From contig JAFXNC010000004.1 in assembly GCA_017529875.1 (NCBI GenBank), positions 1 to 64,000 on the forward strand: DNA of 64,000 nt, read 5' to 3'. The stretch comes from Ruminococcus sp. (GTDB lineage Bacteria; Bacillota; Clostridia; Oscillospirales; Ruminococcaceae). Of this stretch, positions 28,417 through 62,287 are shown piece after piece; positions within the stretch are counted from its first letter, which is position 1; each line of letters begins with the position of its first letter. Under the pieces are notes generated by a model that saw nothing but the letters and a program-made list of their open reading frames with translations, had not been told where the DNA came from and did not search any database. The translations under genes and the position numbers were made by a program.

Positions 28417-29106
28417 GTGAGAAACAACATCCTTATCGTAGACGACGATGAAGACCTGACCTTTGTGATAACCGATATGCTGGAGAGCTACGGCTACTGC
28501 GTCACCTCTGCGGCCAGTGCCGAGGAGGCCTTCGCCATACTTGGGGACAGAGTATTCGACCTGATACTGCTGGATATCAACCTGCCCGACTCCACCGGCT
28601 TTGAGATCTGCCGGGAGCTGAGGCGGGTCTCCGACGTGCCGGTGATATTCGCCAGCGCCCGCACCGGCGAGACCGACAGGATAGCGGGCTTCGATATCGG
28701 CGGCGACGACTGCCTGCCGAAGCCCTACTCAATGGCTGAGCTCATCTCCCGGGTCAAGGCGCTGATGCGCCGCGCCTACGGCAGAGAGACCGCCTCCGGC
28801 AGGACAGTCACCTTCGGGGACGTGAGCGTGGATATCGCGGCGCGTTCCGTCACCAGGAAGGGCGCCCCCGTGACCCTCTCACTGAAAGAATTCGACCTGC
28901 TGGCCTGCCTCTGCGAGCACGCAGGCACAGCCCTCCCGAAGGAAAAACTTCTATCGGAGGTGTGGGGAGCCTTCTCGGAGGTGGAGCCCTCCACCCTGAC
29001 GGTGCATATCCGCTGGCTGCGTGAAAAGCTGGAGGACGACCCCGCATCCCCAAAGTACATCAAGACCGTATACAAAGTAGGCTACATACTGGAGGCGGAG
29101 AAATGA
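28417..29106 (+). CDS. OmpR-family response regulator (BceR/VirR-like)
   Basis: REC domain with phospho-Asp (LILLDINLPD) and winged-helix trans_reg_C. Confidence 0.9.
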   Translation: MRNNILIVDDDEDLTFVITDMLESYGYCVTSAASAEEAFAILGDRVFDLILLDINLPDSTGFEICRELRRVSDVPVIFASARTGETDRIAGFDIGGDDCLPKPYSMAELISRVKALMRRAYGRETASGRTVTFGDVSVDIAARSVTRKGAPVTLSLKEFDLLACLCEHAGTALPKEKLLSEVWGAFSEVEPSTLTVHIRWLREKLEDDPASPKYIKTVYKVGYILEAEK

Positions 29107-30248: not shown

Positions 30249-30996
30249 GCCAGTTATTGAGGCTCCTTTCTCTGTCACGCATGGAGGAGGGGCCTTTGTA
30301 TTTGCCCAGGGTGTGCTCGGCCTTGATGTTGCCGTCCACGATGTAGAGTACTCTGTCGCACTTGGCGGCAACGTGGCTGTCATGGGTGACAAGCAGGATC
30401 GTGGTGCCCTCGGCGTTGAGGCGTACCAGCTCGTCGGTGACTTCCTCGGAGGAGGTGCGGTTCAGAGCGCCGGTGGGCTCGTCGGCGAAGATCATAGTCG
30501 GGGAGTTTATCATGCTCCGGGCTATGCAGGCTCTTTGCAGCTGTCCGCCGGAGACCTCGTTGATGTCGTTGTCGGCGATGTCGGAGATGCCCAGCTTCTT
30601 CATCAGCTCCTCGCCCCGGCGCTTCTTGTCGGCGCGGGAGGCGTGATCCTTTTCCGATCTCATAGCCGGCAGGATGATGTTATCCAGCAGCGAGAGGTTC
30701 TTGAGCATATACATCTGCTGAAAGATAAATCCCATTTCATCAAGGCGCAGCTCCGAGAGCTCGTCCTTTTTCAGCTTGGAGATATCTCTGCCCTTGAAGC
30801 TGACGCTGCCGGAGGTCATGCCGTCCATGCCGGAGGCGGTGTAGAGCAGGGTGGACTTGCCTGAACCCGAGGGTCCCATTACCGCGATCATCTCCCCGGC
30901 GGCCACCGAGAAGCTCACGTTTTTGAGCACGTTGTTCTGTCTTTTGTTTATGATATAGGTCTTGCAGAGATCCTTTACTTCGAGAATGGTTTCCAT
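30229..30996 (-). CDS. ABC transporter ATP-binding protein (MacB/BceA-like)
   Basis: Walker A GPSGSGKST, signature SGGQLQR, Walker B IFADEPTGALN. Confidence 0.9.
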   Translation of the reverse strand: METILEVKDLCKTYIINKRQNNVLKNVSFSVAAGEMIAVMGPSGSGKSTLLYTASGMDGMTSGSVSFKGRDISKLKKDELSELRLDEMGFIFQQMYMLKNLSLLDNIILPAMRSEKDHASRADKKRRGEELMKKLGISDIADNDINEVSGGQLQRACIARSMINSPTMIFADEPTGALNRTSSEEVTDELVRLNAEGTTILLVTHDSHVAAKCDRVLYIVDGNIKAEHTLGKYKGPSSMRDRERSLNNWLMDLGW

Positions 30997-31031
30997 AATG
31001 CTTTCCTCCGTTTATCTGTTTTAGGGGACTG

Positions 31032-33398: not shown

Positions 33399-33410
33399 TT
33401 TTGCTTCTCC

Positions 33411-33707
33411 TTACTTTTTCAGCTTTGCCCTTACCGTCAGTATTACAAGTACCGCTGCGCTGACTTTGAGGATCACCTTCGACTGCCTCTTTATCTCGTC
33501 GGAGATCAGCTTCATCATGGCTTTCCTGATCTTCTCGCCCTCAGCGGCGCCGCAGCCGGCTGTCTCAGCGATATCCCCGGCGATGAGGGCCTGTTCCTTC
33601 TTCGAGAAGATGTTCCTCTCGTCGATGCATCCCAGCACCTTCATGGCTGTCTCTCTGTCAAGTCCTGTCTGTTCTGAAAGTCTCTTAGCGAATGTGTTCT
33701 TTGTCAT
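33411..33707 (-). CDS. small protein with HTH-like N-terminus and C-terminal TM helix, first gene of the permease operon
   Basis: Start at internal ATG MTKNTFAKRLSEQTGLDRETAMKVL...; C-terminal KVILKVSAAVLVILTV hydrophobic helix; ends 12 nt before the permease start. Confidence 0.4.
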   Translation of the reverse strand: MTKNTFAKRLSEQTGLDRETAMKVLGCIDERNIFSKKEQALIAGDIAETAGCGAAEGEKIRKAMMKLISDEIKRQSKVILKVSAAVLVILTVRAKLKK

Positions 33708-33846
33708 GGCTGTTGTCTCCTTTCTTTTGTCCTGCGGGTCGTTTCCTTTACTGTGGTTTAAGTATAACACGGGAATTATTAAATAATCCTTAAATGCCGC
33801 AAACCCCTGAACAGCGCGGTTTGGACGGCTCATCTATTGACAGGCA

Positions 33847-33875
33847 GGGAGGAAAATGTTATAATTATTACGATG
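33847..33875 (+). promoter_or_regulatory. perfect-consensus sigma-70 promoter TTGACA-17-TATAAT reading into the repeat region
   Basis: ttgacaggcagggaggaaaatgttataat. Confidence 0.6.
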
Positions 33876-33888
33876 CACTATCACGTTT

Positions 33889-33951
33889 GTGCGCGGTAAC
33901 GCGCCTATACTCAATTATTTATTATTCTCTTTTTATATAAGATGTAGAGGC
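33889..33951. repeat. leader-like block A1 (GC hairpin GCGCGGTAACGCGC + TATACT + AT-rich + TTATAAGATGTAGAGGC)
   Basis: About 75% identical to block A2 at 34059-34131. Confidence 0.7.
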
Positions 33952-34058
33952 TTGTCATTTTGCCAAGGTAAGGTTGTCATTTTGCCAAGGTAAGGTTGTC
34001 ATTTTGCCAAGGTAAGCTTGTCATTTTGCCAAGGTAAGGTTGTCATTTTGACAAGGTC
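33952..34058. repeat. tandem array 1: 4.8 spacer-less copies of 22-bp unit TTGTCATTTTGCCAAGGTAAGG
   Basis: Units at 33952, 33974, 33996 (one substitution), 34018 and 34040 (degenerate). Confidence 0.95.
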
Positions 34059-34131
34059 GTGCGCGGTCACGCGCCTATACTCATAGATAGTTTCTTATAT
34101 TCTTTCTTATAAGATGTAGGCAGTCCATTTT
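34059..34131. repeat. leader-like block A2 (GCGCGGTCACGCGC hairpin ... TTATAAGATGTAGGC)
   Basis: Paralogous to A1. Confidence 0.7.
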
Positions 34132-34133
34132 TT

Positions 34134-34232
34134 GGATAGGGGTAGTCTAAAAACTGGATAGGGTAGTCTATTATTTGGATAGGGTAGTCTATTATTTGGA
34201 TAGGGCAGTCTATTATTTGGATAGGGCAGTCC
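34134..34232. repeat. tandem array 2: about 4.6 spacer-less copies of 21-22-bp unit GGATAGGGTAGTCTATTATTT
   Basis: Units at 34134, 34156, 34177, 34198 (G>C variant) and 34219 (partial). Confidence 0.95.
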
Positions 34233-34415
34233 GAATAACAGACAGGGTACGCGGTACTATTCACTGACGCCTCTCACTTATATCCGGAAAAGGGCAAAAA
34301 GTTGCACGCGAACGTGCAACCGACAAGTCAGATGACCGGGCTGTAACAGCTCAACAGGGTAAAAAATTACTCACTTAGCCTGAATATACAATAATTGTGC
34401 ATTGAAAAAGGAGGA

Positions 34416-35060
34416 ATGACCGTGACCAGGAAAGAAAAAGCCCTCGCAGTCTGCGACAGGCTGGAGGAAAAATACCCCGACGCCATATGCTCCCTTACAT
34501 ATGATAAGCCCCATGAGCTGATGATCGCCGGAAGGCTCTCGGCGCAGTGCACCGACGAGCGGGTCAATATCGTCACCAAAGAGCTTTTTGCCAAGTACCG
34601 CTCCATCGACGACTTCGCCGCCGCCGACGTCAGGGATATCGAGGAGATAATACGTCCCTGCGGCCTCTACAAGACCAAGGCTCAGTCCCTGGTGGGGATG
34701 TGCAAGGCCATAAACGAGCGCTTCGGCGGGCAGATACCCGATACCATAGAAGAGCTCACCACCCTCCCGGGCATAGGCCGCAAGACCGCCAACCTCATCA
34801 TCGGGGACGTCTTCGGCAAGCCCGCCGTCGTCACCGACACCCACTGCATACGCATCACGGGAAGGCTGGGTCTGACATCCAACACCGACCCCGTGAAAGT
34901 TGAGACAGATCTGCGAAAGATACTCCCCCCGGAGCGTTCCGGCGACCTGTGCCACAGGCTGGTGCTTTTCGGCAGGGAGGTCTGCAAAGCCCGGGGCGAG
35001 CGGTGCGATGCCTGCCCCCTTCAAGACCTGTGTTCTGCCTATAAAAAGAAGAAGTCCTGA
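34416..35060 (+). CDS. nth: endonuclease III (DNA-(apurinic or apyrimidinic site) lyase)
   Basis: HhH-GPD motif LPGIGRKTANLI and 4Fe-4S C-x6-C-x2-C-x5-C cluster; start ATG 34416 or GTG 34422. Confidence 0.9.
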   Translation: MTVTRKEKALAVCDRLEEKYPDAICSLTYDKPHELMIAGRLSAQCTDERVNIVTKELFAKYRSIDDFAAADVRDIEEIIRPCGLYKTKAQSLVGMCKAINERFGGQIPDTIEELTTLPGIGRKTANLIIGDVFGKPAVVTDTHCIRITGRLGLTSNTDPVKVETDLRKILPPERSGDLCHRLVLFGREVCKARGERCDACPLQDLCSAYKKKKS

Positions 35061-38791: not shown

Positions 38792-40010
38792 GGCTAAAAG
38801 AGATCTGATCGTGACAGCGGTCGCCTCGCTGATCGTTATCATGATGTTTTCCATATTCCATCTGGTGAAGCTGATAAACGATTCCTCCAAGGAGCAGATC
38901 AAGGTGGGCTTCGTTTACGACAGCGACGAGAGCACCCCCTACACCGCCAATTTCATCAAGGCGCAGAAGGCTCTTGAACGTCAGCTGGGCAGCAAGGTGG
39001 TAACGGTGGTCAAGTCCAACATCTACGACAGGGACGGCGGCAAAAAGGCCGTCAGCGAGCTGGTCAACGAGGGCTGCGACCTCATCTTCACCACCAGTAT
39101 AGGTTACAGCAAGGCCGCCAAGGAATATGCCGAGCAGTACCCGGACATACAGTTCTGCCAGGCCACCGGCGACAATGCCGGCACCGAGCCGGTGCTGGAC
39201 AATTATCATACCTTCATGGGCGAGATCTATCAGGGCAGATACATCTCAGGCGCCATAGCCGGCATGAAGCTGCGAGAGCTCATCGACAGCGGCAGGATCT
39301 CCCCTGACAAGGCCAGGATCGGCTATGTGGCAGCCTACGAGACGGCTGAGGTCATCTCGGGATATACGGCCTTCCTGCTTGGCGTCAGGTCTGAGGCGCC
39401 CGAGGCGGTCATGGAGGTCATGTACACCAACACCTGGTCGAGCTACGCCGTGGAGAAGAAGTGCGCCAAGCAGCTCATCGCCGACGGCTGCGTCGTGATC
39501 TCACAGCACTCCGATACCACAGGCCCTGCGGTGGCCTGCGAGGAAGCCCAGAACGTCTACCATGTGGGCTACAACCAGAGCATGATCGACGTGGCGCCCA
39601 CCACCTCCATAATAAGCTCCTGCATCAACTGGACCCCCTACATAGTCAGCGCCAGCGAGGCAGTCCTTGCGGGAAAGCGCATCGAGGACTATGTACAGGG
39701 CGACGAGAACGGCAACGACCTGGGAGCGGGCTTTGACCTGGACTGGGTACAGATGCTGGAGCTCAACTCTCTCATAGCCGCCGAGGGCAGCGCCGACAAG
39801 ATCACGGAGCTCACCGACAAGTTCAAGGACGGCTGGAACGAGGTCTTCAAGGGCAGCTACACCGGTGTTGACCCCACCGATCCCAACAAGACCATAGACC
39901 TGAGCGGAGGCTACACCGAGAACGAGCACTCATCCGCGCCGACCTTCTGCTACGTCCTGAATGACGTCATCACCATAGTCGAACAAGAAACGGATGCGCG
40001 GATTCGCTAA
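38781..40010 (+). CDS. BMP/PnrA/Med family ABC-type substrate-binding protein homologue, membrane-anchored
   Basis: Start ATG 38781 overlaps the HD-GYP gene stop by 11 nt; N-terminal TM; BMP-family periplasmic-binding fold. Confidence 0.75.
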   Translation: MTSEAKRDLIVTAVASLIVIMMFSIFHLVKLINDSSKEQIKVGFVYDSDESTPYTANFIKAQKALERQLGSKVVTVVKSNIYDRDGGKKAVSELVNEGCDLIFTTSIGYSKAAKEYAEQYPDIQFCQATGDNAGTEPVLDNYHTFMGEIYQGRYISGAIAGMKLRELIDSGRISPDKARIGYVAAYETAEVISGYTAFLLGVRSEAPEAVMEVMYTNTWSSYAVEKKCAKQLIADGCVVISQHSDTTGPAVACEEAQNVYHVGYNQSMIDVAPTTSIISSCINWTPYIVSASEAVLAGKRIEDYVQGDENGNDLGAGFDLDWVQMLELNSLIAAEGSADKITELTDKFKDGWNEVFKGSYTGVDPTDPNKTIDLSGGYTENEHSSAPTFCYVLNDVITIVEQETDARIR

Positions 40011-40047
40011 AAGAAGAAAGAATAAAGAAAAAAGAATAAAGAATAAT

Positions 40048-40110
40048 TAAGGAGTCCGCTTTGCGGACGATTTTAAAAATCATCGCCGAAGGCGATACCT
40101 TAATTATTCT
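40048..40110. terminator. bidirectional terminators (GTCCGCtttGCGGAC and ATCGCCgaaGGCGAT) embedded in an approximately 35-bp AT-rich inverted repeat
   Basis: Arms gaaagaataaagaa...aataattaagg / ccttaattattctttattctt around two short GC hairpins. Confidence 0.65.
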
Positions 40111-40137
40111 TTATTCTTTATTATTCTTCTTTATTCT

Positions 40138-40620
40138 TTACAGCGTCAGCGGCATAAGAAGGCATACTGCCGTGGCGGAAATGCCGAGGCGCTCTCCCGT
40201 GAAGCCAAGGCCTTCCTCTGTGGTGGCCTTCACCGAGATCCGGGAGATATCTGTACCGCAGGCTCTGGCGATGTTCTCCCGCATCTGCATGATGTGGGGG
40301 GCGAGCTTCGGTGCCTGAGCACAGACTGTTGAGTCGATGTTGCCGATCTCATAGCCGGCCTCTCTGACCCTGCGCACCACCTCGGTCATGAGCAGGAGGC
40401 TGTCAGCGCCCCTGTAACGCTCGTCGCTGTCGGGGAACAGCTTTCCGATATCCCCCATAGCCGCCGCACCGAGGAGCGAATCCATAATTGCGTGGGCGAG
40501 AACGTCCGCGTCGGAGTGACCCAGCAGCCCCAGGGTGTGAGGTATATCCACGCCCCCAAGGATCAGCTTTCTGCCCTCTGCAAGCCTGTGTACGTCGTAG
40601 CCGTGACCTATCCGAAACAT
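40138..40620 (-). CDS. ispF: 2-C-methyl-D-erythritol 2,4-cyclodiphosphate synthase
   Basis: GHGYDVHRL...GHSDADV... conserved IspF motifs, 160 aa. Confidence 0.95.
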
Positions 40621-53019: not shown

Positions 53020-54555
53020 TCAGAGGTTTGCGTTCACGTACTCCGCAAAGCGCATGAATCCGGCCTTTCCGGCCTCGTCGCGCTTGTATACGCCTGCGTG
53101 TTCAAGCACCTTTGCAAAGACCGTGCCTATCTCGTTGCGGATGATCTCATGGATGTTATCCGCGGTCACGGTATTGCGTGAGAGGAAGTCCTCAGCCCAG
53201 TCGGCGTGCTTGGCAAGGGTCTCGTCTGCGCGGAGGTCTTTGCCCGCAAGTATGGCCTCAGCCAGCTGTGACATCTCGCCTTTCAGCCTCGAAGGCAGCA
53301 CCGCAAGTCCCATTACCTCGATAAGGCCGATGTTCTCCTTCTTGATGTGATGCAGCTCGGCATGAGGGTGATACACTCCCAAAGGATGCTCGGGGGTGGT
53401 GATGTTGTTGCGCAGCACTAAGTCAAGCTCATACTCGCCGTCGCGCATACGGGCTATGGGGGTGACGGTGTTGTGGGGCTCGCCGTCGGTCTCGGCGAAG
53501 ATGAACAGGCTCTCGTCGGTGTAGCCTCTCCACTGCCGCTGTATCCTGTCGGCAAGCTCGGTGAGGGTGAACCTGTCTGCGCTGCGCAGTCTGATGACCG
53601 ACATAGGCCACTTGACGATGCCCGCCTTGACCTGCTCAAAGGCCGTGAACGTCAGCTCCTGCTCCACAGGGGCCTTAGCCATGGCAAATTCGTAATTGCC
53701 TCCCTGGAAGTGCTCGTGGGAGAGGATGGATCCGCCCACGATGGGCAGGTCGGCATTGGAGCCGATGGTGTAGTGAGGGAACCGGTCTATAAAGTCAAAG
53801 AGCTTTACAAACACCGATCTGTCTATCACCATGGGGGTATGCCTGCGGTTGAAGACGATGCAGTGCTCGTTGTAGTACACATAGGGGGAGTACTGGAAAC
53901 CCCATTCCTCGTTGTTTATGGACAGGGGGATGACCCTGTGGTTCTGCCTTGCAGGGGAGTCGGCTCTGCCGGCGTAGCCCACGTTCTCATAGCACAGCAG
54001 GCACTTGGGATAGCCCGACTGCACCGCTTTCCTGGCGGCGGCGATAGCTTTTGGATCTTTTTCCGGCTTGGAGAGGTTGATCGTAATGTCAATATCCCCG
54101 TACTCTGTGGGGGCCAGCCAGCGCATATCCTTCTTGATGCGGTAGCGCCGGATGTAATCCGAGTCCTGCGACCACTTGTAGAACATATCGGTAGCCATGC
54201 GGGGGGTGGTGTCCTCATAGATCCTGTAAAAGTCCCGGATCATTACCGAAGGCCGCGGCGTGAGCAGTCCCATGAGCTTAGTGTCGAAGAGATCGCGGCT
54301 GGTGACGTTGTCCTCGCAGAGCCCCTGAGCGCAGGCAAAGTCCAGCAGCTCCTTGAGCACCTGCTCCAGAAAGTCCCCCTGCTCCGCCTCGGACATGAGC
54401 TCCAGCTCCTGAGTAAAGCACTCCTCCGGCTCCTCATAGGCTGAGAGCCCAAGGGTCTCCAGGACGCGGTTAGTCGCCCAGACAATATCCTCCTCCCCGA
54501 TGAGCCCGGTAACGAAGGCATAGCTTACGAGTTTCTTGATGCTTGTGTTTATCAT
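53020..54555 (-). CDS. galT: UDP-glucose--hexose-1-phosphate uridylyltransferase (type 2, Firmicutes GalT)
   Basis: 511 aa; GalT type-2 family. Confidence 0.85.
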   Translation of the reverse strand: MINTSIKKLVSYAFVTGLIGEEDIVWATNRVLETLGLSAYEEPEECFTQELELMSEAEQGDFLEQVLKELLDFACAQGLCEDNVTSRDLFDTKLMGLLTPRPSVMIRDFYRIYEDTTPRMATDMFYKWSQDSDYIRRYRIKKDMRWLAPTEYGDIDITINLSKPEKDPKAIAAARKAVQSGYPKCLLCYENVGYAGRADSPARQNHRVIPLSINNEEWGFQYSPYVYYNEHCIVFNRRHTPMVIDRSVFVKLFDFIDRFPHYTIGSNADLPIVGGSILSHEHFQGGNYEFAMAKAPVEQELTFTAFEQVKAGIVKWPMSVIRLRSADRFTLTELADRIQRQWRGYTDESLFIFAETDGEPHNTVTPIARMRDGEYELDLVLRNNITTPEHPLGVYHPHAELHHIKKENIGLIEVMGLAVLPSRLKGEMSQLAEAILAGKDLRADETLAKHADWAEDFLSRNTVTADNIHEIIRNEIGTVFAKVLEHAGVYKRDEAGKAGFMRFAEYVNANL

Positions 54556-54827
54556 ACCTATTCTCCTTTCTTAATGGGGGGATACCCCCGGTTTGGGGCG
54601 GCGTTCACATGGCTGTGACATAATATATCATTCTAATTATAATACAAAAGCGGTGGAATGTCAAGGATCGGATAAGCGTAATTATTCTCCCTGCCGTCCG
54701 GAAAGCGTCGGATTTTTTCGGAAAAGATGCACATTTGCGTGCAACTTTTCGGATTTTTCCCGCTATAAGTGAAAGAGGTCGTGATGCTGTGAACAAAACA
54801 GGGTCGTACAAGCAGCCAATGCAGCAT

Positions 54828-54905
54828 TGTACATACGTACAAGGCAGGGTTGGCCGTACATACAAGGCAGGGTTGGTCATACGTACAAGGCAGGGTCGTA
54901 CAAAC
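54828..54905. repeat. tandem array 3: about 3.5 copies of a 22-23-bp unit (CGTACATACAAGGCAGGGTTGG), preceded by a block homologous to 34240-34370
   Basis: Units cattgtacatacgtacaaggcagggttgg, ccgtacatacaaggcagggttgg, tcatacgtacaaggcagggtcg and partial tacaaacatcc; upstream 'ccggaaaag...tgcac...gcgtgcaac' and 'gctgtgaacaaaacagggt' match locus 1. Confidence 0.85.
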
Positions 54906-55229
54906 ATCCATCTCCACATATTAATAAAAAGATAACAAAAAAGATAACAGAAAAGAAGACAGTAAGCGCTTTGCGCCGCACACATCCGAAGAAGTCAGGG
55001 CATATTGCAAAGAACGCAGCGGCAGGGTGTTTGGCTGTCCGGGCTGACAATGCTCATGCATTGACATTTGTAGAATACCCAAATAGAAACTTAGGCAATT
55101 AGCAGTATCAATCCGACAAGAAAATGCTACCAATATGAACATAGTCTCTTAACATAGGGCTATGTTCATTTCTTTTTCAGCTGATTGACTTTTCAATCCA
55201 CAGGTGAACTTGCAAACTTACAAAGTTAT

Positions 55230-55258
55230 TTGCATATATGATAAAGATGTGCTATAAT
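55230..55258 (+). promoter_or_regulatory. sigma-70 promoter TTGCAT-17-TATAAT for first sigma-fusion gene
   Basis: ttgcatatatgataaagatgtgctataat. Confidence 0.55.
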
Positions 55259-55343
55259 TTATTTTACACAGACTGAACCTTTTACCCAAATTCTCCGACT
55301 ATATAAATGAAAGCGCTTTCAATTACAAATCAGAGGTGAGGAT

Positions 55344-56600
55344 ATGAGCGAATTTGAAATGCTGGTTAGTGAACACCGTGGTGCGGTCGAGCGGTATGTG
55401 CGGTTCAATATTCCGACTAAGGCTGACAGCGATGACGTTTTGCAGGAGGTATGGCTGGCGGCATACAGACAGTTTGACAAACTGCTGAACAAAAGCAGCT
55501 TTAAGGCTTGGGTCATAGGGATAGCCCGTCACAAGGTCAAGGACTATTTCCGCAGCAGGCGTGATACGCTCGGCATTGATGAACTGCCCGAGAGCGAGCT
55601 TGTTCAAAGCCGTTACGGACTTGTGGAGTATTTGCCTGTTCACGAGACTATAGAGTGTCTGAACGAAAATGATAAGCAGATACTCAGGCTTTACTACTTT
55701 GAGAATATGCCGCAGAACGAGATAGCGGACAGGCTCGGCATACCGCTCGGAACGGTCAAAAGCCGCTTGAACACCGCAAGACGCAATTTCAAAAACGCAT
55801 ACCCATATCCGCCGAAAGGAGAAGATACTATGTTTAAGCTACCGAAAACTATGCCCGAATACAAGATCATTCCCAGCGACAAAGAGCCATTTGCGGTCAA
55901 GTGGGAGGAGCTTATGGGCTGGTTTATCGTCCCGAAGATAGGTGAAAAGCTGACTTGGGCTATCTACGACCAGCCGTCCCGCAAGGGTGATTATTTCTAC
56001 GAAATGGAGGTCATCGGCAAGGCAGAGATACACGGCGTAGAGGGCGTTGAAATAATCGCTAAAGAGGGCAATTTTGATAAGACACAGCCCTGCACCGAAC
56101 GCAGATTTGTGGCACAGCTTACCGATACACATTGCCGTTATCTTGCCGAAAGCCATGTTGTGAACGGCGTAAGGAAGCTGTACACCTTCCTTGACGGTGA
56201 CGCATTCCTGCCTAACTGGGGCTACGGCGAGGACAACTGCGGAAATGAAATAATTATTTCGCCAAAGGGGATAATCGTTAAAAAGGGCAACGAAATAACT
56301 GTAAATAGTGAGAAAGCTCCGCTTGACATAGTCGGCAGATACACAGTTGAGATAAATGGCAAGACCTATGATGCCGTTTGTGTTATTGATGTCGGGACAT
56401 ATAATGAAGGTGTCCTCAGCGAGCAGTTTCTTGACAAGAACGGCAGAACGATCTTATGGCGCAGGTTCAACCGCAACGATTGGGAGTTTGACCGCTACGG
56501 CAAGCTGTGGACAGAGGCTCTGCCCGACAATGAGAGACTTTCAGTCAACGGTGAGACGTATGTGCATTGGTATGATTGTGTGAGTGATTATATTTTTTAA
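55344..56600 (+). CDS. ECF-type sigma-70 family factor (regions 2 and 4) fused to an approximately 250-aa beta-rich C-terminal domain
   Basis: Sigma-70 r2 (VLQEVWLAAYRQFDK) and r4 (MPQNEIADRLGIPLGTVKSRL); no TM segment; no separate anti-sigma gene. Confidence 0.7.
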   Translation: MSEFEMLVSEHRGAVERYVRFNIPTKADSDDVLQEVWLAAYRQFDKLLNKSSFKAWVIGIARHKVKDYFRSRRDTLGIDELPESELVQSRYGLVEYLPVHETIECLNENDKQILRLYYFENMPQNEIADRLGIPLGTVKSRLNTARRNFKNAYPYPPKGEDTMFKLPKTMPEYKIIPSDKEPFAVKWEELMGWFIVPKIGEKLTWAIYDQPSRKGDYFYEMEVIGKAEIHGVEGVEIIAKEGNFDKTQPCTERRFVAQLTDTHCRYLAESHVVNGVRKLYTFLDGDAFLPNWGYGEDNCGNEIIISPKGIIVKKGNEITVNSEKAPLDIVGRYTVEINGKTYDAVCVIDVGTYNEGVLSEQFLDKNGRTILWRRFNRNDWEFDRYGKLWTEALPDNERLSVNGETYVHWYDCVSDYIF

Positions 56601-56606
56601 AAGTAA

Positions 56607-56645
56607 GCGGCATACCTGCCTTGTGCGGGTATGCCTTTTTCTTGC
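56607..56645 (+). terminator. rho-independent terminator after sigma-fusion 1
   Basis: GCGGCATACCtgccttgtgcGGGTATGCC + TTTTT; near-identical hairpin repeated at 58371-58405. Confidence 0.7.
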
Positions 56646-56670
56646 ATAAAAAAATAAATTATGGTATAAT
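56642..56670 (+). promoter_or_regulatory. sigma-70 promoter TTGCAT-17-TATAAT for second sigma-fusion gene
   Basis: ttgcataaaaaaataaattatggtataat. Confidence 0.55.
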
Positions 56671-56736
56671 AAAACCCACCAAACCTTCCGCTCATTTCTG
56701 CGACTAATAAGTGAAGCTTCAAAAAGAGGTGCGCCT

Positions 56737-58362
56737 ATGAATAAGAATGAATTAACAGAATATGCCGATCTGCTTCTGCAAGCGGCTGTGCGAAAATGTG
56801 ATAACCTCGCTGATGCACAGGATCTGGTTCAGGAAACTCTGCTTATTGCATTGATAGCTATCGAGAACGGTAAGGAAATAGCCGAGCCTAAAAACTGGCT
56901 GATGACGGTTCTGAACCGCAAGTATTACGATATGCTGAGGGAGAAATACCGCAAGCCTACCGTCTGCATTGACGTTGTCGGGGAAATAGCCGATGAGAGC
57001 AGCATTGATGATAATTCGGACGATGCGGAAAATATCCGCCGCTGCCTTGCAAATCTTACCAAAATTTACCGTGAGGTAATGGTGCAGCACTATATGAACG
57101 GCAGGAGCGTTGCCGAGATAGCGCAGAGCCTTGGTATACCCGAAAACACCGTCAAGAATCGTTTGTTTACAGGCAGAAAGCATATTCGGAAGGAGTTTGC
57201 TATGGAGAATTATACTAAGCAGAGCTATGAACCTGATGATCTTTGGATAGCCAGTACGGGTCAGACAGGTATTGATGATGAGCCGTGGAAGCTGGTCGGT
57301 CAAGATCGTATCGCTATGAATCTGCTGATACTCGCCTACGAGCAGCCCGTCACACTGACTGAGCTTTCAAAGGCGATAGGCATTTCGACTACATATATTG
57401 AGCCGATAGTAGAACGGCTTGTGGATGGTGAACTGATGAAAAAGGTATCAGATAAGGTTTATACTGATTTCATCATTCACACCGAGGATGAAAGACTTGC
57501 TTCGCTTGATCTGCAATTAAGTCTTGCAAAAGAGCTATGCTCCGAGATATGGGAGATTGTTGACGAAGGGCTTGCCGAGCTGTTCCAGCGTGATTATTAC
57601 AAGTCTAAAACCAAAGAACAGGCTATCAAACTGGAGAGCTTTTTAGTGTTCAGGACACTTCTTCACGCTGTCAATGGAGTGCGTGATGAAGTCAGCGGCG
57701 GAAGAGAACCCTTTGAGAGCTATCCCGACAGACCAAACGGCGGCAAGTGGTATGCTATGGGTTCACTGTATCCTCACGGATATGATTACGATCATTGCCC
57801 CTACAGCCGCTATCAGTTTAGCGGTGAAAGTGTCAACAATATGAAAAATGTGATCGGAGCAAAAGCTCTGTCCCTGTGTCTGTATGACACAGATGCTTCT
57901 GTTCTCGGCACTACCTATAAAGAATATTTTTATATTGACTCGTTCTCGAAGCTGATATATTCAATATATCTCGGTCAGACCGATATGCTTGAAATGCTTG
58001 ACAAAAAGCTGCTTGAAAATATAGGCACGATGATAGAACAGAATACTCTGCTCCGTGATGATGAGGGTAAATTGCAGGTCAATATCCCAGTTATCTCCAT
58101 GCAGGACAGATGGGATATTTACGAGCTGAGCGAGAAGTACGACAATATAATTTCCGAGAGGTTTCATGACAGATTTATGGAACTTATGAAAAATCCCGTA
58201 AAGCTGCCGAAGCATTTGAAATCCGTTCCTGATTGGCTGCGTTATATGGACTGCTGCAGCTATTTCCCCTCGGCTGTTATACTTGAAGCAAGGGAGAAAG
58301 GGCTGTTTTTGAAAGGCTATGACAGACCTGCGCCTGCTGTTATGCTTTGTGTGGAAAAGTGA
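56737..58362 (+). CDS. ECF-type sigma-70 family factor fused to an approximately 370-aa C-terminal extension containing a second HTH-like segment
   Basis: Sigma r2/r4 (RSVAEIAQSLGIPENTVKNRL) followed by a winged-helix-like VTLTELSKAIGISTTYIEPIVERL and a large alpha/beta region. Confidence 0.7.
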   Translation: MNKNELTEYADLLLQAAVRKCDNLADAQDLVQETLLIALIAIENGKEIAEPKNWLMTVLNRKYYDMLREKYRKPTVCIDVVGEIADESSIDDNSDDAENIRRCLANLTKIYREVMVQHYMNGRSVAEIAQSLGIPENTVKNRLFTGRKHIRKEFAMENYTKQSYEPDDLWIASTGQTGIDDEPWKLVGQDRIAMNLLILAYEQPVTLTELSKAIGISTTYIEPIVERLVDGELMKKVSDKVYTDFIIHTEDERLASLDLQLSLAKELCSEIWEIVDEGLAELFQRDYYKSKTKEQAIKLESFLVFRTLLHAVNGVRDEVSGGREPFESYPDRPNGGKWYAMGSLYPHGYDYDHCPYSRYQFSGESVNNMKNVIGAKALSLCLYDTDASVLGTTYKEYFYIDSFSKLIYSIYLGQTDMLEMLDKKLLENIGTMIEQNTLLRDDEGKLQVNIPVISMQDRWDIYELSEKYDNIISERFHDRFMELMKNPVKLPKHLKSVPDWLRYMDCCSYFPSAVILEAREKGLFLKGYDRPAPAVMLCVEK

Positions 58363-58370
58363 ATACTGAT

Positions 58371-58405
58371 TTGCGGCATACCTGCATTGGTGGGTATGCC
58401 GCATT
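58371..58405 (+). terminator. rho-independent terminator after sigma-fusion 2
   Basis: GCGGCATACCtgcattggtgGGTATGCCGC. Confidence 0.6.
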
Positions 58406-58561
58406 ACTATCATCAAGTCCTTGGAGCGAGTCTGAGGGCTTTTTCTTATCAGCGGATAGATTCCCCCATAATCTTCATGAACGGCTCTGAGGGGCTTTCC
58501 CGTTCGCCGCAAGGCATAGCAAAAGCGAGCTACCATTTTCGATAACTCTCTCCGCTGATAA

Positions 58562-58768
58562 TTATTCGTCTGAACACTCGTCAAGCCCGTGTATGAGCTG
58601 AATATAAATGCACTCTGCTCGTTCACGTTCCTCGTCCTCGGCGGTCATCATCATTTCAAGGAAATATGCCTTTGCCTGTTCGTAGTCAGTCCAGACCTCA
58701 TGCCTGCCGTTGCAGACGGTAGTGACCTTGCGTGTTCTCGGCATTGCCAATTCAGGTGTTTTCAACAT
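58562..58768 (-). CDS. small hypothetical protein (about 68 aa) of the island
   Basis: Start at internal ATG MLKTPELAM...; acidic C-terminus; no recognisable family. Confidence 0.35.
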   Translation of the reverse strand: MLKTPELAMPRTRKVTTVCNGRHEVWTDYEQAKAYFLEMMMTAEDEERERAECIYIQLIHGLDECSDE

Positions 58769-58903
58769 AGCTGTGTACCTCCAAATCATTATTATAGATA
58801 CATTATATACTGCAATCACGCAGGAGTCCAGCGTTGGTGAGAAACTGTAATAATCTTTGTGCAGGGCGCAGCAATAAAAGCATTTCCTCGGTGCATTTTT
58901 CTC

Positions 58904-59311
58904 CTATTTCTTTACGTCCTCGTGAGCCTTATCAACTATCGCTCTGAACGTCTGCGGTGTCACGGCAAAGCGTCCCAACTTTGCCTGATACTCTGCAAGT
59001 CTTGCGGATATTTCCTCAACTCCCTGACGTATTTCCTGCAAATCTTCGGGATAAATATTTCCTGTCTGATTGACCTGAATTGCTATGGAATTTATGCGGT
59101 CAGCAATCTCTTTGAATCTTGCCTTTTCGGGTGCAAGCTCCTCGTCCGTCAACTCAATTATGGGAGTGGCGATAATAGAGTTAAAAATATATTCCGACAT
59201 CGAGCGCAGACCGCTTTCCTCCGTGTACTGTTTCAGCTTGGCAAACTCCTTGTCATTCAAGCGGACTTTCAGCACCTTTGACTTCCGTTCCTCGTCCGAT
59301 TTTACATTCAT
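58904..59311 (-). CDS. MobC-like plasmid mobilisation relaxosome accessory protein
   Basis: KVLKVRLNDKEFAKLKQYTEESGLRSMSEYIFNSII matches the MobC ribbon-helix-helix-like N-terminal signature. Confidence 0.5.
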   Translation of the reverse strand: MNVKSDEERKSKVLKVRLNDKEFAKLKQYTEESGLRSMSEYIFNSIIATPIIELTDEELAPEKARFKEIADRINSIAIQVNQTGNIYPEDLQEIRQGVEEISARLAEYQAKLGRFAVTPQTFRAIVDKAHEDVKK

Positions 59312-59469
59312 AAACAAACCTCCAAAATCTTAGTATTCGCCCATTTTTATTATCTATTATATCACTTTTTCTTTCATAAATCAAGCGGGGTCTTAGGGGT
59401 GCAAAACCCTCTAACAAGCTCCTGTATTCAGGGTGGTCATTTTTCAAAATGTACCCCATGAATACCGTG

Positions 59470-59540
59470 CTTGCTGGGTTTGAAAGCCAGCGCATATTGT
59501 GAACTTGTGTACACAATATGCAGAGCTTGCTGGGTTTGAT
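59470..59540. repeat. oriT/att-like element: direct repeats GCTTGCTGGGTTTGA flank a 10-bp perfect inverted repeat GCATATTGTG-N11-CACAATATGC that contains the palindrome TGTGTACACA
   Basis: Read directly from the sequence upstream of the MobC-like gene. Confidence 0.6.
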
Positions 59541-59819
59541 TTTGATATTCTTCCGACCGTTCAGGTCGGATTGGTTTATTTTCCTCGTTTGCGTGAAAAT
59601 ATTTCTGAGCGAACTTTAATAGTCGCTCAGGCGCTCCTCAGAGCGTTTAGAGTTATGCAACTTCGTGATAGAATCAAATTCCCCATAACAATTTGTCGAA
59701 CGCAAAACTCATCTGACACACCAAAGTTCATGCGCACTGCCAATAGACAAAGTGAAGCGTTGCGCGCTATAATATTATCATCGGGTATGATTCCGAAATC
59801 TGAAACGAACGGTGGTGAT

Positions 59820-60140
59820 GATATGGCTGACATCGCAAAGAAGATCTCTAAGCTCGATGAGAAGATCGTCAAGCTGAAAGAGCGTATCAAGACCGACACG
59901 GCTGAATGTGAAAAGCTAAGTGAGCAGAAAGCTCTGCTGATCTATCAATCGCTGTGCAAGCAGTATAGCTGTGAGGGGCAGGCTCTTGCCGATATGATCG
60001 CAAGAGAACACGAGCAGGCAGCTACGTCCGATGCTGATGATAAATCTGTGTCGGATAACAGCTCTGCCGATGATGCTGACGAGGAAGAAATGCTCGGTCA
60101 GACTTCTTTCTTTGAGAAGAAAAATCCTTACTCGGATTAA
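59820..60140 (+). CDS. small coiled-coil protein (DUF4315-like) common on clostridial conjugative/mobilisable elements
   Basis: Start at internal ATG MADIAKKISKLDEKIVKLKERIK...; acidic tail. Confidence 0.4.
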   Translation, partial: DMADIAKKISKLDEKIVKLKERIKTDTAECEKLSEQKALLIYQSLCKQYSCEGQALADMIAREHEQAATSDADDKSVSDNSSADDADEEEMLGQTSFFEKKNPYSD

Positions 60141-60240
60141 CATATATCCGACAGCAAAACGTTCTGTGCAGGAGTAACGACCCTGCAACAAAAAGCCATT
60201 GCGTGTAGAGAAAAAGATATCGCAGGCGGAAAGGAGCAAT

Positions 60241-60462
60241 TTGAAAGAGACAACAACTGCCGTAGATAGAGAGAAGGCAGTATTCAAAACTGTGCAGACA
60301 CTTGAGGAGCAGTTTAAGGGCTGCCCCGAACGTGTCAGCGTCTATGAGATAGGCGGCTGCAAGTATACCGTCCATAGTCATTTTGTCGGTGACAAAGACC
60401 TTGATGAAGTTATGGAACAGCTTGCGTATGATGCCGCTATGAAAGAAACTGTTACGGCGTAA
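60241..60462 (+). CDS. TnpW-like small transposon protein (YxVxSxF motif)
   Basis: ...GGCKYTVHSHFVGDKDLDEVMEQLAYDAA; TTG start after AAAGGAG; sits immediately upstream of the serine recombinase as in Tn4451-family elements. Confidence 0.45.
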   Translation: MKETTTAVDREKAVFKTVQTLEEQFKGCPERVSVYEIGGCKYTVHSHFVGDKDLDEVMEQLAYDAAMKETVTA

Positions 60463-60555
60463 AAATATTGGAAAAAGCACTTGTCAAATCCGATATATTG
60501 CGCTATAATGGATATGTCGGATTTGGTACTGCTTTGATTTGAAAGGAGTTGCTAA

Positions 60556-62172
60556 ATGGCAAAGCAGACCGAATACAATGTGGGTATCTACCTCCGCCTT
60601 AGTCAAGAGGATTTGCGTGAGGGAGATTCCCTTTCAATAGAAAACCAAAAACTGATACTGACAAAATATGTCGAGGACAAGGGGTGGAAGCTCGTTTCGG
60701 AATATGTGGACGATGGTTACACAGGAACTGATTTTGAACGACCGGGGGTACAGAAACTCCTTGCCGATGCCCAGTCCGGAAAAATCAATATCATCGTAGT
60801 AAAAGACCTTTCTCGCTTTGGTCGAAATTATATTGAGGTAGGCCGCTACATTGACTATATTTTTCCGATGAACAACATTCGCTTTATTGCGATCAATGAC
60901 AATGTTGATACGGCAGAACGCAACAGTGCCGCACTTGAAATGATGCCTATTGTCAATCTCTTTAACGAGTGGCACAGCAGTTCCACGAGCAAAAAAATCA
61001 GAGCTGTCTATGAAGCAAATGCAAAGGCAGGCAACTATATGGGCGCACTCGCTCCCTTCGGTTATGTCAGGAGCGACACACCGAATCATACGCTTGTTAT
61101 CGATCCCGAAGCCGCTCCGTATGTTAGAAAGGTCTTTGAATTACGGGCATCAGGGCTGTCATATCGCAAGGTTGCAAGAGAAATGAATCTTGCCAAAATA
61201 CCTACTCCGTCACAGTATCGTTATGATAAACTCGGCAGACCCAATCCGAGAACAACAAGCGGAGTGTGGAGTGAAGAAGTGATCAAGTCTATTGTTCATA
61301 ATCAATCATATATCGGCATACTTGTACAGCTTCGCACCACTACTGTATCACACAAAAATCATAAGGTGATCGGCAGGGACGAGTCCGAATGGGCGGTAGT
61401 CGAAAACGCTCACGAACCTCTTATTTCACAGGAGCTTTGGGACAGATGTGTTGAGATCGACAATTCGTGCAGCAGAGGTAAATGCACAAAGGAAGGTGTC
61501 ACTCTCCCTCTTTCGGGATTCTGTTATTGTGCTGACTGCGGACACAAAATGCGTCAGAGCGGTGAGCCGTCAGCATATATCTGCGGAAGATACTCAAAGT
61601 CTGGCAGAACAGTTTGCAGTACGCATTATATCAGAGTGAATATGCTTGAACAGGTTATCCTTGCTGACATTCGCTCTATGCTGAAACTGACCGTTGATGA
61701 AGATAAGGCAAGAGCGTATTTTCTGAAACGCAAGTCGGGTACCAGAGCTATTCAGACCGCAGAGAACACCAAAAAGATAAAGCAGGCTGAAAAACGTCTT
61801 GCGGAGCTTGATAAACTGATCCGTTCTGTGTATGAGGACAAGGTTATGGGCAGAGTGGCAGAGGATATGGCTCTCTCGCTTCTTAATGACTATCAGCAGG
61901 AGAAAGAAAAGCTGTCCTTGGAACTTGACGAGCTGAAAAGCAGGCTCGAAGCGCAAAAGCAGGACAGCGATGACGTTGATGAATTTATCCGCCGTTTGAA
62001 GATGTTTGCAGGAGCAGAGGTCTTTACCCGTGAAATGGCTTTACAGCTTATCGAGTATGTGACAATTGACAAAAACCCCAGAAGCAGATCACGCATGAAC
62101 GAGCGTGAGATCCATATCTATTACAAGCTGATTGACAAGGGATTAAATGATCCGCTGAACGCCCTTGAATAA
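60556..62172 (+). CDS. large serine recombinase (resolvase catalytic domain + recombinase domain + zinc ribbon + coiled-coil)
   Basis: Catalytic Ser in VGIYLRLSQEDL; recombinase domain; Cys-rich CYCADCGHKM...CGRYSKSGRTVC zinc ribbon; C-terminal coiled coil. Confidence 0.9.
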   Translation: MAKQTEYNVGIYLRLSQEDLREGDSLSIENQKLILTKYVEDKGWKLVSEYVDDGYTGTDFERPGVQKLLADAQSGKINIIVVKDLSRFGRNYIEVGRYIDYIFPMNNIRFIAINDNVDTAERNSAALEMMPIVNLFNEWHSSSTSKKIRAVYEANAKAGNYMGALAPFGYVRSDTPNHTLVIDPEAAPYVRKVFELRASGLSYRKVAREMNLAKIPTPSQYRYDKLGRPNPRTTSGVWSEEVIKSIVHNQSYIGILVQLRTTTVSHKNHKVIGRDESEWAVVENAHEPLISQELWDRCVEIDNSCSRGKCTKEGVTLPLSGFCYCADCGHKMRQSGEPSAYICGRYSKSGRTVCSTHYIRVNMLEQVILADIRSMLKLTVDEDKARAYFLKRKSGTRAIQTAENTKKIKQAEKRLAELDKLIRSVYEDKVMGRVAEDMALSLLNDYQQEKEKLSLELDELKSRLEAQKQDSDDVDEFIRRLKMFAGAEVFTREMALQLIEYVTIDKNPRSRSRMNEREIHIYYKLIDKGLNDPLNALE

Positions 62173-62287
62173 TCGGTTAGTTAAATTTTAGGTTAATTTC
62201 CTTATGGGTAATGTACATTTGTAAAAAACTGTGCTATAATCAAACTGAGAAAATGTATTTTTTTGTACACTTCCGGAGGTGTGTGCT

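Follow-up and report, generated by a model that had tools for sequence, protein, structure and literature searches.

The tandem array at 54.6–55.0 kb of the window (the whole stretch of 64,000 nucleotides analysed here), termed array 3, is a non-coding, chromosomal element in the galT/SH3-protein spacer of a rumen Ruminococcus sp., and the cassette that contains it is an orphan copy of a prophage operon-start module. The array played no part in the integration of the low-GC island beside it and is not an att site, because a strain without the island carries the array unchanged. The cassette is tentatively read as a lineage-specific element of mobile-element origin, in which helically phased, iteron-like protein-binding repeats would be transcribed from a phage-type promoter (rough probability 0.35). 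About 84 kb of the genome was read, consisting of the window and 10 kb on each side.

Array 3 and its counterparts at 33.8–34.4 kb

The best units of array 3 were located by Tandem Repeats Finder (TRF) at positions 54827–54896 of the + strand, with a period of 23, 3.0 copies, 85% matches and a score of 105. The whole array (54793–54907, + strand) was composed of five 23-bp phases with the core ACAAGGCAGGGT(T/C)G, since a 26-nt direct repeat (54793–54818 and 54885–54910) recurred at a spacing of 92, which equals 4 × 23 bp. The second phase was decayed, and the well-kept units lay within 54827–54896. About 3.5 copies of a 22–23-bp unit had been counted here in a sequence-only reading of the window, and this array proved real, either as 23 bp × 3.0 in its best part or as five phases over its full length. 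The first unit, which bore AACAAAACAGGGT, was degenerate (54780–54806, + strand).

Several elements were arranged on both sides of the array. A near-consensus promoter of the sigma-70 type, GTGACA-17-TATAAT, was predicted by a consensus scan at 54615–54643 (+ strand); it pointed at array 3 and overlapped the divergent galT promoter (54664–54636, − strand). Further downstream, a small terminator-like hairpin with a T-run (54696–54713, + strand) was located 5′ of a dyad, GATGCACA-TTTG-CGTGCAAC (54726–54745, no strand), which was flanked by AAAAG and CTTTT and had one mismatch in its left arm (GATGCAC). The dyad was followed by a promoter-like half (54746–54779, + strand), which was delimited by alignment to P3 of the other locus and contained a T-rich 18-nt spacer, the box TATAAGTG (54764–54771) and AAAGAGGT. 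The dyad and this half together are referred to as P4. An ORF of two codons, ATG CTG TGA, with its ATG at 54783, was read from the sequence after the P4 box. On the distal side, an A-rich 12-bp repeat, AAAAAGATAACA × 2.6 (54926–54956, + strand), adjoined the array, and a small GC hairpin, GCGC-TTT-GCGC followed by CGCACAC, was read at 54964–54985 (no strand). The − strand of this hairpin appears to resemble the H1 and H2 hairpins of the other locus.

The other locus, locus 1, contained two arrays. A promoter matching the consensus at 12 of 12 positions, TTGACA-17-TATAAT with an upstream TG, was predicted at 33837–33865 (+ strand), facing arrays 1 and 2 and nth. Leader P1 (33889–33951, + strand), composed of the GC hairpin GTGCGCGGTAACGCGCC, TATACTCA, an AT-rich stretch and TATAAGATGTAGAGGC, led into array 1 (33952–34057, + strand; 22 bp × 4.8, 96% matches, unit TTGTCATTTTGCCAAGGTAAGG). 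Leader P2 (34059–34121, + strand), a paralogue of P1, led into array 2 (34122–34248, + strand; 21 bp × 5.2 and a terminal degenerate unit ending in AACAGACAGGGT). A 25-nt pattern with N at position 10 fitted both leaders exactly, with TATAAGATGTAG repeated. P3 (34260–34320, − strand), an inverted module of dyad, T-run, TATAAGTG and AGAGG, faced array 2, and a lone unit-like element, GCTGTAACAGCTCAACAGGGT, was found at 34340–34360 (+ strand). The loci were flanked by galT, the SH3 protein, nth, a 98-aa protein and FtsX. A candidate oriC, suggested by a cumulative GC-skew minimum near 41–43 kb and a DnaA-box-like CTATCCAAA in array 2, was rejected; dnaA and dnaN were absent there, and CTATCCAAA was not common to arrays 1 and 3.

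The three arrays had periods of 22, 21 and 23 bp, respectively, with about five units each. A 12-nt core, GRYARGGTWGKC, which is degenerate and was derived from the same array data, was found at 11 unit junctions over all three arrays, and its matches outside the arrays within the window were about as many as expected by chance. Period class, copy number (about 5) and common core agreed with the proposal that array 3 is the third member of one repeat family. In arrays 2 and 3, the substitutions gathered in the spacer and the core was preserved. The pre-array motif said to be common to both loci was confirmed, with exact TATAAGNNNNAGAGG at only 33936 and 54764 in the 64 kb. In addition, AACA-N0-5-ACAGGGT occurred three times (34237, 34345 and 54792), only at the two loci and always on the + strand; the chance expectation was 0.13 for this motif, which was defined after the data had been seen. 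AT-rich stretches (33906–33935, 34084–34107 and 54911–54960) and GC dyads lay beside each array, in a window whose intergenic DNA is generally AT-rich (0.28–0.45 GC). Unlike in a CRISPR array, the units abutted head to tail, with no unique spacers. The ORFs over the arrays had no family match in the analysis of coding potential.

The dyad-plus-box module of prophage operon starts

The sequence-only reading had aligned 54690–54810 with 34283–34360 on the same strand. This forward alignment was at chance level (score 18 against 14.6 ± 2.4 for shuffled sequences, z = 1.4), whereas the reverse-complement alignment of the same regions gave z = 9.9. The extended inverted match, 34260–34318 against the reverse complement of 54729–54785, was identical at 46 of 58 positions and scored 54, compared with 19.5 ± 2.0 in shuffles. 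The similarity of the two loci was thus significant, as had been proposed, but in the inverted orientation and not on the strand claimed. The apparent forward fit of the 'ccggaaaag...cgtgcaac' block seems to stem from the dyad at its core, TTGCACG-N4-CGTGCAA. Neither the inversion between the loci nor the promoter- and terminator-like character of the block had been noticed in the sequence-only reading.

The block common to both loci was composed of the dyad GTTGCAC-N6-GTGCAAC, a T-run, 14 nt and then TATAAGTG-AAAG(A)GG. P3 and P4 both had the dyad with TTTT, the dyad of P3 being perfect, and the box was TATAAGTG-AGAGG in P3 and TATAAGTG-AAAGAGG in P4. A genome scan with the right arm and the box gave 13 stretches, of which 10 belonged to Clostridia and preceded terS/terL or DnaD-like genes. 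An independent metagenome scan with the dyad only gave at least 120 loci, in which a TAT(A/T)(A/G)GTG-AAAGG box recurred at a fixed +18 from GCAAC and phased A/T tracts lay upstream. Furthermore, the dyad and T-run were present in 32 IMG/VR contigs, and the genome, metagenome and viral scans together placed the same dyad in more than 150 loci. The ORFs after the module copies encoded TerS, a replisome organizer or DnaD-like loader, an endolysin and others. The module of dyad, T-run and 'TAT..GTG-AAAGG' marks operon starts in prophages of gut Clostridia (terS, replisome organizer and lysis). It was defined here from these scans and is apparently unnamed; the dyad sequence brought up nothing but primer noise in the literature. 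Of the sigma-54, sigma-K, sigma-B/F and ECF consensus sequences compared with the module, the first three were rejected, and a candidate resemblance was kept only for the ECF type, in GCAAC-TTTT.

When compared with the phage copies, P3 and P4 were in register throughout the dyad, T-run, 14-nt spacer, TATAAGTG box and AAAG(A)GG. The phage copies were followed by a gene (terS, replisome organizer or endolysin) within about 15–70 nt, whereas P3 and P4 were followed by non-coding tandem arrays. No protein-coding gene was found within about 15–100 nt of either; only the 2-codon ORF was downstream of P4, and an unsupported 65-aa repeat ORF was downstream of P3. In other Clostridia, the module also headed non-coding chromosomal regions beside polC and PFOR, which had an AT-rich core and short motifs in repeated copies. 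In a minority of chromosomal copies (L037, L052, L059, L112 and L125), non-coding repeats likewise followed the module, but these had motifs of 11–13 bp. Inside phage replisome-organizer genes, iteron arrays of 18–24 bp were located some 600 bp downstream of the module. A likeness between the AT-rich leader P1 and the AT-rich core of L112 and L059 was borderline (z of about 4 on low-complexity sequence) and was set aside. The GCAAC dyad was absent from P1 and P2 at the module spacing, so their promoter type may differ from that of the module.

Competing accounts of the repeats

The 10-kb extensions on each side of the window contained no further arrays or modules, which leaves two loci in about 84 kb. 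The repeats had been proposed to be a species-specific mobile element; with only these two loci, the mobility was not borne out, while the restriction to one lineage apparently holds. A weak point for mobility is the position of locus 1, which occupies a rearrangement junction when compared with a related species. In the strain comparison, all retrieved contigs were identical, with no copy-number variation; the look-up needs an identical flanking protein and is biased toward clones. Arrays and module were absent near the orthologous FtsX block of related species (FtsX 87% and 79% identical), and the galT-anchored loci of relatives showed no conserved synteny and no arrays. In a comparison of about 0.8 Mb, no comparable multi-copy array of 21–23 bp was found beside the module or in the orthologous loci of relatives. 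The repeat family appears to be lineage-specific.

No match to either locus was found by blastn among INPHARED phages and PLSDB plasmids, none to the three array units by exact search in IMG/VR, and none in a metagenome scan to the locus 1 flank composed of the H1 hairpin and TATACT. Rfam gave no match in the window at gathering scores, chance-level matches only at both loci at a permissive E-value, and none in the related non-coding loci. No initiator, Rep or other dedicated DNA-binding gene adjoined either locus, and the island was without Rep. Defence-gene neighbours were not found by PADLOC, except for trivial HD and HhH matches.

In the preferred reading, the module hairpin would be terminator-like, and its 3′ arm with the T-run (GTGCAAC-TTTT) would double as an upstream promoter element, either an ECF-sigma-type −35 or a dyad operator centred near −41. 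This element and the TATAAG box would jointly set the transcription start at the array edge. At the DNA level, one sequence-specific protein would bind the arrays at reiterated sites that are helically phased (21–23 bp, about two turns). Their DNA would be iteron- or operator-like, derived from a phage or plasmid replication or regulation region and expanded by slippage. The sites may still act, through titration or local control of the divergent promoters, or they may be a young relic.

The significant inverted match of P3 and P4 supports the module part of this reading. The 21–23-bp periods with a common core and spacer-biased substitutions, the GC dyads, the module-headed repeat regions by polC and PFOR and the phage iteron arrays are consistent with iteron-like binding sites, and the AT-rich stretches may be. 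The copy numbers by TRF (4.8, 5.2 and 3.0) and the periods also agree with iteron origins, which have 3–7 direct repeats of about 17–22 bp phased at about 22 bp. The absence of the cassette near the FtsX block of relatives and the position of locus 1 at a rearrangement junction point to a young, lineage-specific origin. However, no gene for a Rep, a replisome organizer or another dedicated binding protein lies beside either locus, and the island-free strain has array 3 in its chromosome. The unit sequences differ among the three arrays, the single binder depends on the degenerate 12-mer taken from the same data, and lone core sites elsewhere in the window do not exceed about the chance number. 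The units are also absent from the phage, plasmid and viral collections, and the strand co-orientation and folding described below suit a role as RNA equally well.

A possible, though doubtful, alternative is that the arrays lie in young filler DNA as neutral minisatellites without a function. The spacers would have come from rearrangement or from a decayed mobile-element fragment, with an orphan module whose former gene start survives as a 2-codon ORF; short AGG(G)T microhomologies would have given rise to the repeats by slipped-strand duplication, and concerted evolution would have homogenised the paralogous copies. The units end in AGG(G)T, like the AGAGG just before each array, and P4 retains an SD-like AAAGAGG and an ATG, yet has a stop after two codons. 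The lack of partner genes, the absence from the FtsX and galT-anchored loci of relatives, the synteny breakpoint at locus 1 and the breaks of short-read assemblies inside array 1 are also in line with such filler. Neutral slippage accounts less well for three arrays in 84 kb that all have 21–23-bp periods and about five units beside the same motif, with none comparable in about 0.8 Mb, or for substitutions that are concentrated in the spacers and spare the core. Paralogy could partly explain both of these points.

A tandem-repeat sRNA, transcribed from the P4 box and from the TATAAGATG leaders P1 and P2 at the array edge, is unlikely. The G-rich strand would give an RNA of 110–140 nt ending at the GC hairpins, each unit forming a small hairpin with a single-stranded AAGG/AGGG tail, and this RNA would be a multivalent sponge for a Csr-like RNA-binding protein, C-rich sRNAs or anti-SD sequences. 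The arrays start 8–16 nt past TATAAG-type boxes (array 3 about 8 nt past the module), and the G-rich strand of all three is co-oriented with P1, P2, P4 and the consensus sigma-70 promoters at 33837 and 54615. The + strands of the three arrays folded better than shuffles (z = −3.5, −3.1 and −2.0), compared with z = −0.13 for the − strand of array 1. In array 2, the variation lies in the loop of a UCYA-N5-UGGA hairpin whose stem is kept, with C-to-U giving G·U, and each unit has two AGG motifs. On the other hand, transcription from P3, the one genuine copy of the module at locus 1, would read the opposite strand of array 2, and the GC hairpins have no U-tracts and are poor terminators. There is no homologue outside the species, no Rfam match even at the permissive E-value, and no obvious RNA rationale for periods of 21–23 nt.

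The units of ToxI-type antitoxins are 34–46 nt long, with a toxN-type gene after them; Csr sponges depend on GGA motifs. Like ToxI and the Csr/Rsm RNAs, the loci have a promoter-like signal and, directly after it, a tandem array that is non-coding and repeats purine-rich motifs. Unlike ToxI, the units have 21–23 nt, and no toxN/abiQ-type gene was found with Pfam and PADLOC; with regard to the Csr sponges, GGA is present in array 2 only, with AAGG/AGGG in arrays 1 and 3.

A gene-less, phage-responsive cassette, in which a phage transcription factor switches on an array that titrates a phage replication or regulatory factor as an iteron decoy or repeat RNA, is improbable. An orphan phage operon-start signal for replication, packaging or lysis would be wired to a non-coding array and be turned on at infection or prophage induction, and the same logic could extend to the module-headed repeat regions by polC and PFOR in other Clostridia. 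Such a cassette would be a natural counterpart of 'Per', an engineered origin-decoy phage resistance.

It is very improbable that the repeats are recombination or insertion sites of the serine recombinase or another integrase, as the sequence-only reading had suggested. The low-GC island (7151 bp; 55073–62223, + strand) lies outside the repeat cassette and carries genes for two sigma-70-like fusion proteins, a MobC/NikA-like protein and a large serine recombinase (60556–62172). When compared with the empty site in the island-free contig L002, the attL core was the 9-bp ACATTTGTA at 55064–55072 (no strand), and the same core was present at attR (62215–62223). The attL core overlaps the −35 hexamer TTGACA (55061–55066) in the promoter of ORF 62279, the next gene. 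The junction, 55072/55073, is about 163 bp to the right of the last array 3 unit; the array, which had been placed exactly at the GC boundary, is near it and not at it. This short distance (about 160 bp) and a gene order that differs from relatives at both loci would suit insertion sites. However, the island recombined at ACATTTGTA, with the crossover in the promoter spacer of ORF 62279, outside the array, which ends at about 54907–54910 and is intact in the empty site. The entire 517-bp spacer was 100% identical between island-bearing and island-free strains, and no recombinase was found near locus 1.

The least credible account is that array 2 encodes a small repeat protein (65-aa ORF, 34067–34264, − strand, with DCPIQII heptads) expressed from P3 and, by extension, that the cassettes would descend from coding repeats now in decay. 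Seven codons make up the 21-bp period, and the GTG start is separated by 5 nt from a GAGAGG motif that follows the P3 box. However, neither 22 nor 23 bp, the periods of arrays 1 and 3, is divisible by 3, PHROG gave no family match for the ORF even at an E-value of 1, and the would-be SD is at the transcription start position of the module.

Relation to known repeat systems and biological meaning

Lactococcal Rep_3 replicons of the pCI305 type have 22-bp × 3.5 repeats with an AT-rich region and inverted repeats, and ori-lambda has four iterons, an AT-rich region and a palindrome. The arrays resemble such theta-type plasmid and lambdoid origins in having 3–5 direct repeats with a phase of about 22 bp (two turns), in keeping a core while the spacer varies, and in the adjacent GC dyad; the adjoining AT-rich tracts, in intergenic DNA that is AT-rich in general, may correspond too. 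Here, a promoter-like signal reads into the repeats. Unlike iteron origins, they have no nearby initiator and three unit sequences, lie in the chromosome between housekeeping genes, are kept in an island-free strain and have no match in plasmid or phage collections. The BOX elements of Streptococcus pneumoniae are composed of boxA, boxB repeated n times and boxC, with units of about 45 bp, more than 100 dispersed copies and defined terminal modules. Like BOX, the arrays are apparently species-restricted, intergenic and modular, with an internal unit in tandem near promoters; unlike BOX, they were seen at two loci in 84 kb and have units of 21–23 bp and no terminal inverted modules.

If the arrays are neutral, they are of practical value, as markers of young rearranged DNA and as points at which short-read assemblies break, and they do not serve as att sites. 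If they are functional, phage-type regulatory DNA would have been adopted by the chromosome of a gut anaerobe as a stand-alone non-coding unit, with protein-titrating repeats or a repeat RNA. Apart from the arrays, the module looks like a widespread and readily recognised prophage operon-start signal of Oscillospirales-type Clostridia, which could aid the annotation of phage transcription units and lead to the cognate factor.

Array 3 and the neighbouring island

Array 3 is a chromosomal, non-coding and lineage-specific repeat, unconnected with the integration of the neighbouring island, and beside it lies an orphan operon-start module of phage type. It lies in the spacer between galT (53020–54555, − strand) and the next gene on the + strand, and was located by Tandem Repeats Finder at 54827–54896 (period 23, 3.0 copies, 85% matches). 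A 26-nt direct repeat (54793–54818 and 54885–54910) is spaced by 92 bp, or 4 × 23 bp, and array 3 therefore fills five 23-bp phases (54793–54907), the second of which is decayed. The only two exact matches of TATAAGNNNNAGAGG in the window, at 33936 and 54764, are both immediately 5' of an array. The tandem array and the motifs described in the sequence-only reading are real. No ORF across the arrays matched a PHROG family, even at an E-value of 1, and Rfam gave nothing at curated or permissive thresholds.

The low-GC island (55073–62223, 7151 bp) encodes a DUF4368-type large serine recombinase, a MobC/NikA-like protein and two sigma-70-like fusion proteins, in which sigma-70 r2/r4 is joined to long C-terminal extensions (418 and 541 aa). 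When compared with the empty site of a strain with an identical GalT (L002/L030), the island was inserted at the 9-bp core ACATTTGTA (55064–55072 and 62215–62223). This core is situated, within the ORF 62279 promoter, between the −35 (TTGACA, 55061–55066) and −10 (TATAAT, 62235–62240) elements. At its right end, the island puts TGTACA in place of TTGACA, which may partially restore the −35 element.

Array 3 had been placed at the island edge and taken as a possible recombination or insertion site. The junction lies ~163 bp beyond the end of the last unit, with the array on its left, and strains with and without the island are 100% identical over the 517 bp that separate galT from the junction. 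Since the crossover occurred at ACATTTGTA and the empty-site spacer is unchanged, the insertion-site reading fails for this island.

Relationship and distribution of the three arrays

Arrays 1 (33952–34057, 22 bp × 4.8) and 2 (34122–34248, 21 bp × 5.2 plus a degenerate unit) form locus 1. Array 3 had been proposed as a third member of their family, and the period class, unit number and common core agree with this. Each array is ~110–125 bp long, and the degenerate core GRYARGGTWGKC occurs at 11 unit junctions in arrays 1–3 together, with matches outside the arrays near chance expectation. In arrays 2 and 3, the substitutions lie in the 7–10-nt spacer and the core is spared. Arrays 1 and 2 have paralogous 5' leaders, in which a GC hairpin, GTGCGCGGTnACGCGCC, is followed by TATACTCA, an AT-rich stretch and TATAAGATGTAG. 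Consensus sigma-70 promoters at 33837 and 54615 point in the same direction as the G-rich strand of the arrays. A 65-aa ORF (34067–34264, − strand) carries DCPIQII-type heptads through array 2 and starts at a GTG 5 nt past GAGAGG, 3' of the box in P3, the module copy at locus 1; it matched no family and is probably incidental to the 21-bp period.

The similarity between locus 1 and the flank of array 3, previously read as a forward match, is significant but inverted. The forward alignment was at chance level (score 18 versus 14.6 ± 2.4, z = 1.4), whereas the reverse-complement alignment of the same intervals gave z = 9.9. After extension, 34260–34318 (+ strand) and the reverse complement of 54729–54785 were identical at 46 of 58 positions, with a score of 54 against 19.5 ± 2.0 in shuffles. 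At the core of the common block, AAAAG and CTTTT enclose the dyad TTGCACG-N4-CGTGCAA, and this dyad seemingly accounts for the apparent forward match. One forward element of the earlier reading, AACA-N0-5-ACAGGGT, was confirmed; its three copies are confined to the two loci, always on the + strand, and resemble degenerate or solitary units of the arrays.

The host is an uncultured Ruminococcus sp. of ruminant gut metagenomes, and all retrievable strains were identical at both loci in a look-up that favours clones. Neither arrays nor module were found flanking the orthologous FtsX block of a related species (L184; FtsX 87% and Nth 80% identical) or a more distant one (L187; FtsX 79% identical). 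In L184, nth begins 13 bp after a histidine-kinase gene and the FtsX block is turned the other way relative to nth. Together, these absences and this gene order mark the ~560 bp of locus 1 as lineage-specific filler at a rearrangement junction. Relatives have a different gene order 5' of galT, with no arrays at their galT-anchored loci; phage and plasmid collections held no match for either locus, and array units were not found in IMG/VR. The repeat is lineage-restricted, as had been suggested. The 10 kb added on each side of the window contained no additional arrays or modules.

Against L184, the 98-aa/FtsX/ABC block of 28417–35060 is inverted relative to nth, and its neighbouring two-component pair is different and non-orthologous (30–39% identity). 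Here nth no longer stands in an operonic context; a 12/12 consensus promoter lies ~550 bp 5' of it, and the arrays lie in the interval. Short-read contigs of this species in two Logan assemblies (L027, L028) stop at 33979, 30 bases inside array 1; assemblies break at the arrays, and copy numbers in MAGs call for caution.

Further repeats were observed in this genome. Inverted heptamer arrays, AAAGAAT × 5.3 (40010–40046) and TTATTCT × 5.4 (40104–40140), lie between convergent Bmp/PnrA-like and ispF genes and together form a long AT-only inverted repeat (GC 0.28), possibly a bidirectional terminator. A 26-bp × 2.7 array (L002:230–298 = L029:14469–14537), ~3.5 kb past the right end of the window, is the reiterated left arm of a terminator hairpin 3' of the aconitase small-subunit gene and is distinct from the 21–23-bp family. 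The cumulative GC skew of the window (1–64000) has a shallow minimum at ~41–43 kb, where no dnaA or dnaN was found; the genes there encode an epimerase, an unknown 448-aa protein and a HisA-like protein.

The dyad-plus-box module

P3 (34320–34260, − strand) and P4, the copy before array 3 (54726–54785, + strand), share one layout: the dyad GTTGCAC-N6-GTGCAAC, TTTT, 14 nt, TATAAGTG and AAAG(A)GG. Each faces an array, and the array strands are opposite. One genome per species was scanned with the right arm and box, which gave 13 stretches, 10 of them in Clostridia (rabbit-gut MAGs, Oscillibacter, Ruminococcus), located 5' of terminase small/large subunit or DnaD/Lin1244-like genes. Metagenomes were scanned with the dyad and T-run alone, so that the box was not used in selection, and at least 120 loci were obtained. 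Among the matches listed, the box TAT(A/T)(A/G)GTG-AAAGG appeared repeatedly at an unchanged offset of +18, phased A/T tracts lay upstream, and the ORFs after the module encoded terminase small subunits, replisome organizers or DnaD-like loaders, and also endolysin, holin-like and tail-fibre-like proteins. The dyad and T-run were present in 32 IMG/VR contigs, and at several loci the dyad came after the stop codon of a gene in the same orientation.

The module is probably a promoter, possibly serving as a terminator too. A terminator-like hairpin would be joined to a promoter in which GTGCAAC-TTTT, the 3' arm with the T-run, would pair with a non-canonical −10 and act either as an ECF-like −35 element or as one half of a dyad operator with its centre near −41.

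In L048:42–1170 and L098:2901–5092 (reverse-complemented coordinates), a SigK/SigE-like sigma gene shows a skin-like interruption, with a large serine recombinase gene running straight into its 3' part. The module lies directly 3' of the sigma gene and precedes a 107-aa terminase-small-subunit-like gene, which human-gut contigs carry very commonly.

Module-headed repeats and the nature of the arrays

No gene followed 13 of the 52 module copies (about a quarter) that had enough downstream sequence among the matches listed. In L059, L125, L052, L112 and L037, the module starts 400–700 bp of non-coding chromosomal DNA, which adjoins polC in L059 (near 12350–13043) and PFOR, the pyruvate:ferredoxin oxidoreductase gene, in L125 (7250–7850). 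All five regions contain 11–13-bp motifs of the GNAAC type (GCAAC/GGTTGCAG, GTAAC/GGTATCA, GGGAAC/GGGGACA) reiterated in direct and inverted runs, and L052, L059, L112 and L125 also have an AT-rich core (about ...AAAAGAGATAATATAATATATAG...). Rfam had no match in these module-headed regions, which are possibly an undescribed class of locus. Phage replisome-organizer genes contain 18–24-bp iteron arrays ~600 bp 3' of the module. Considering both cases, the arrangement of a module with reiterated sites after it is a recurring one. The repeats of those other loci are not homologous to arrays 1–3.

Arrays 1–3 may be protein-binding DNA derived from a mobile element, helically phased and iteron- or operator-like in character (probability roughly 0.35). 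The two-turn period, about five units and conserved core with a variable spacer point to this reading, as do the adjoining AT-rich tracts and dyads, by analogy with phage and plasmid origins. No defence or Rep genes were found near the arrays. Neutral paralogous minisatellites within young filler DNA are a somewhat less likely alternative. A tandem-repeat sRNA from the G-rich strand is slightly less likely again; promoter placement and folding speak for it, and the opposite polarity of P3 and the absence of terminators against it.

The by-product of this analysis, a widespread dyad-plus-box operon-start signal of gut Clostridia prophages with orphan chromosomal copies before non-coding repeats, may outrank the arrays themselves in usefulness.
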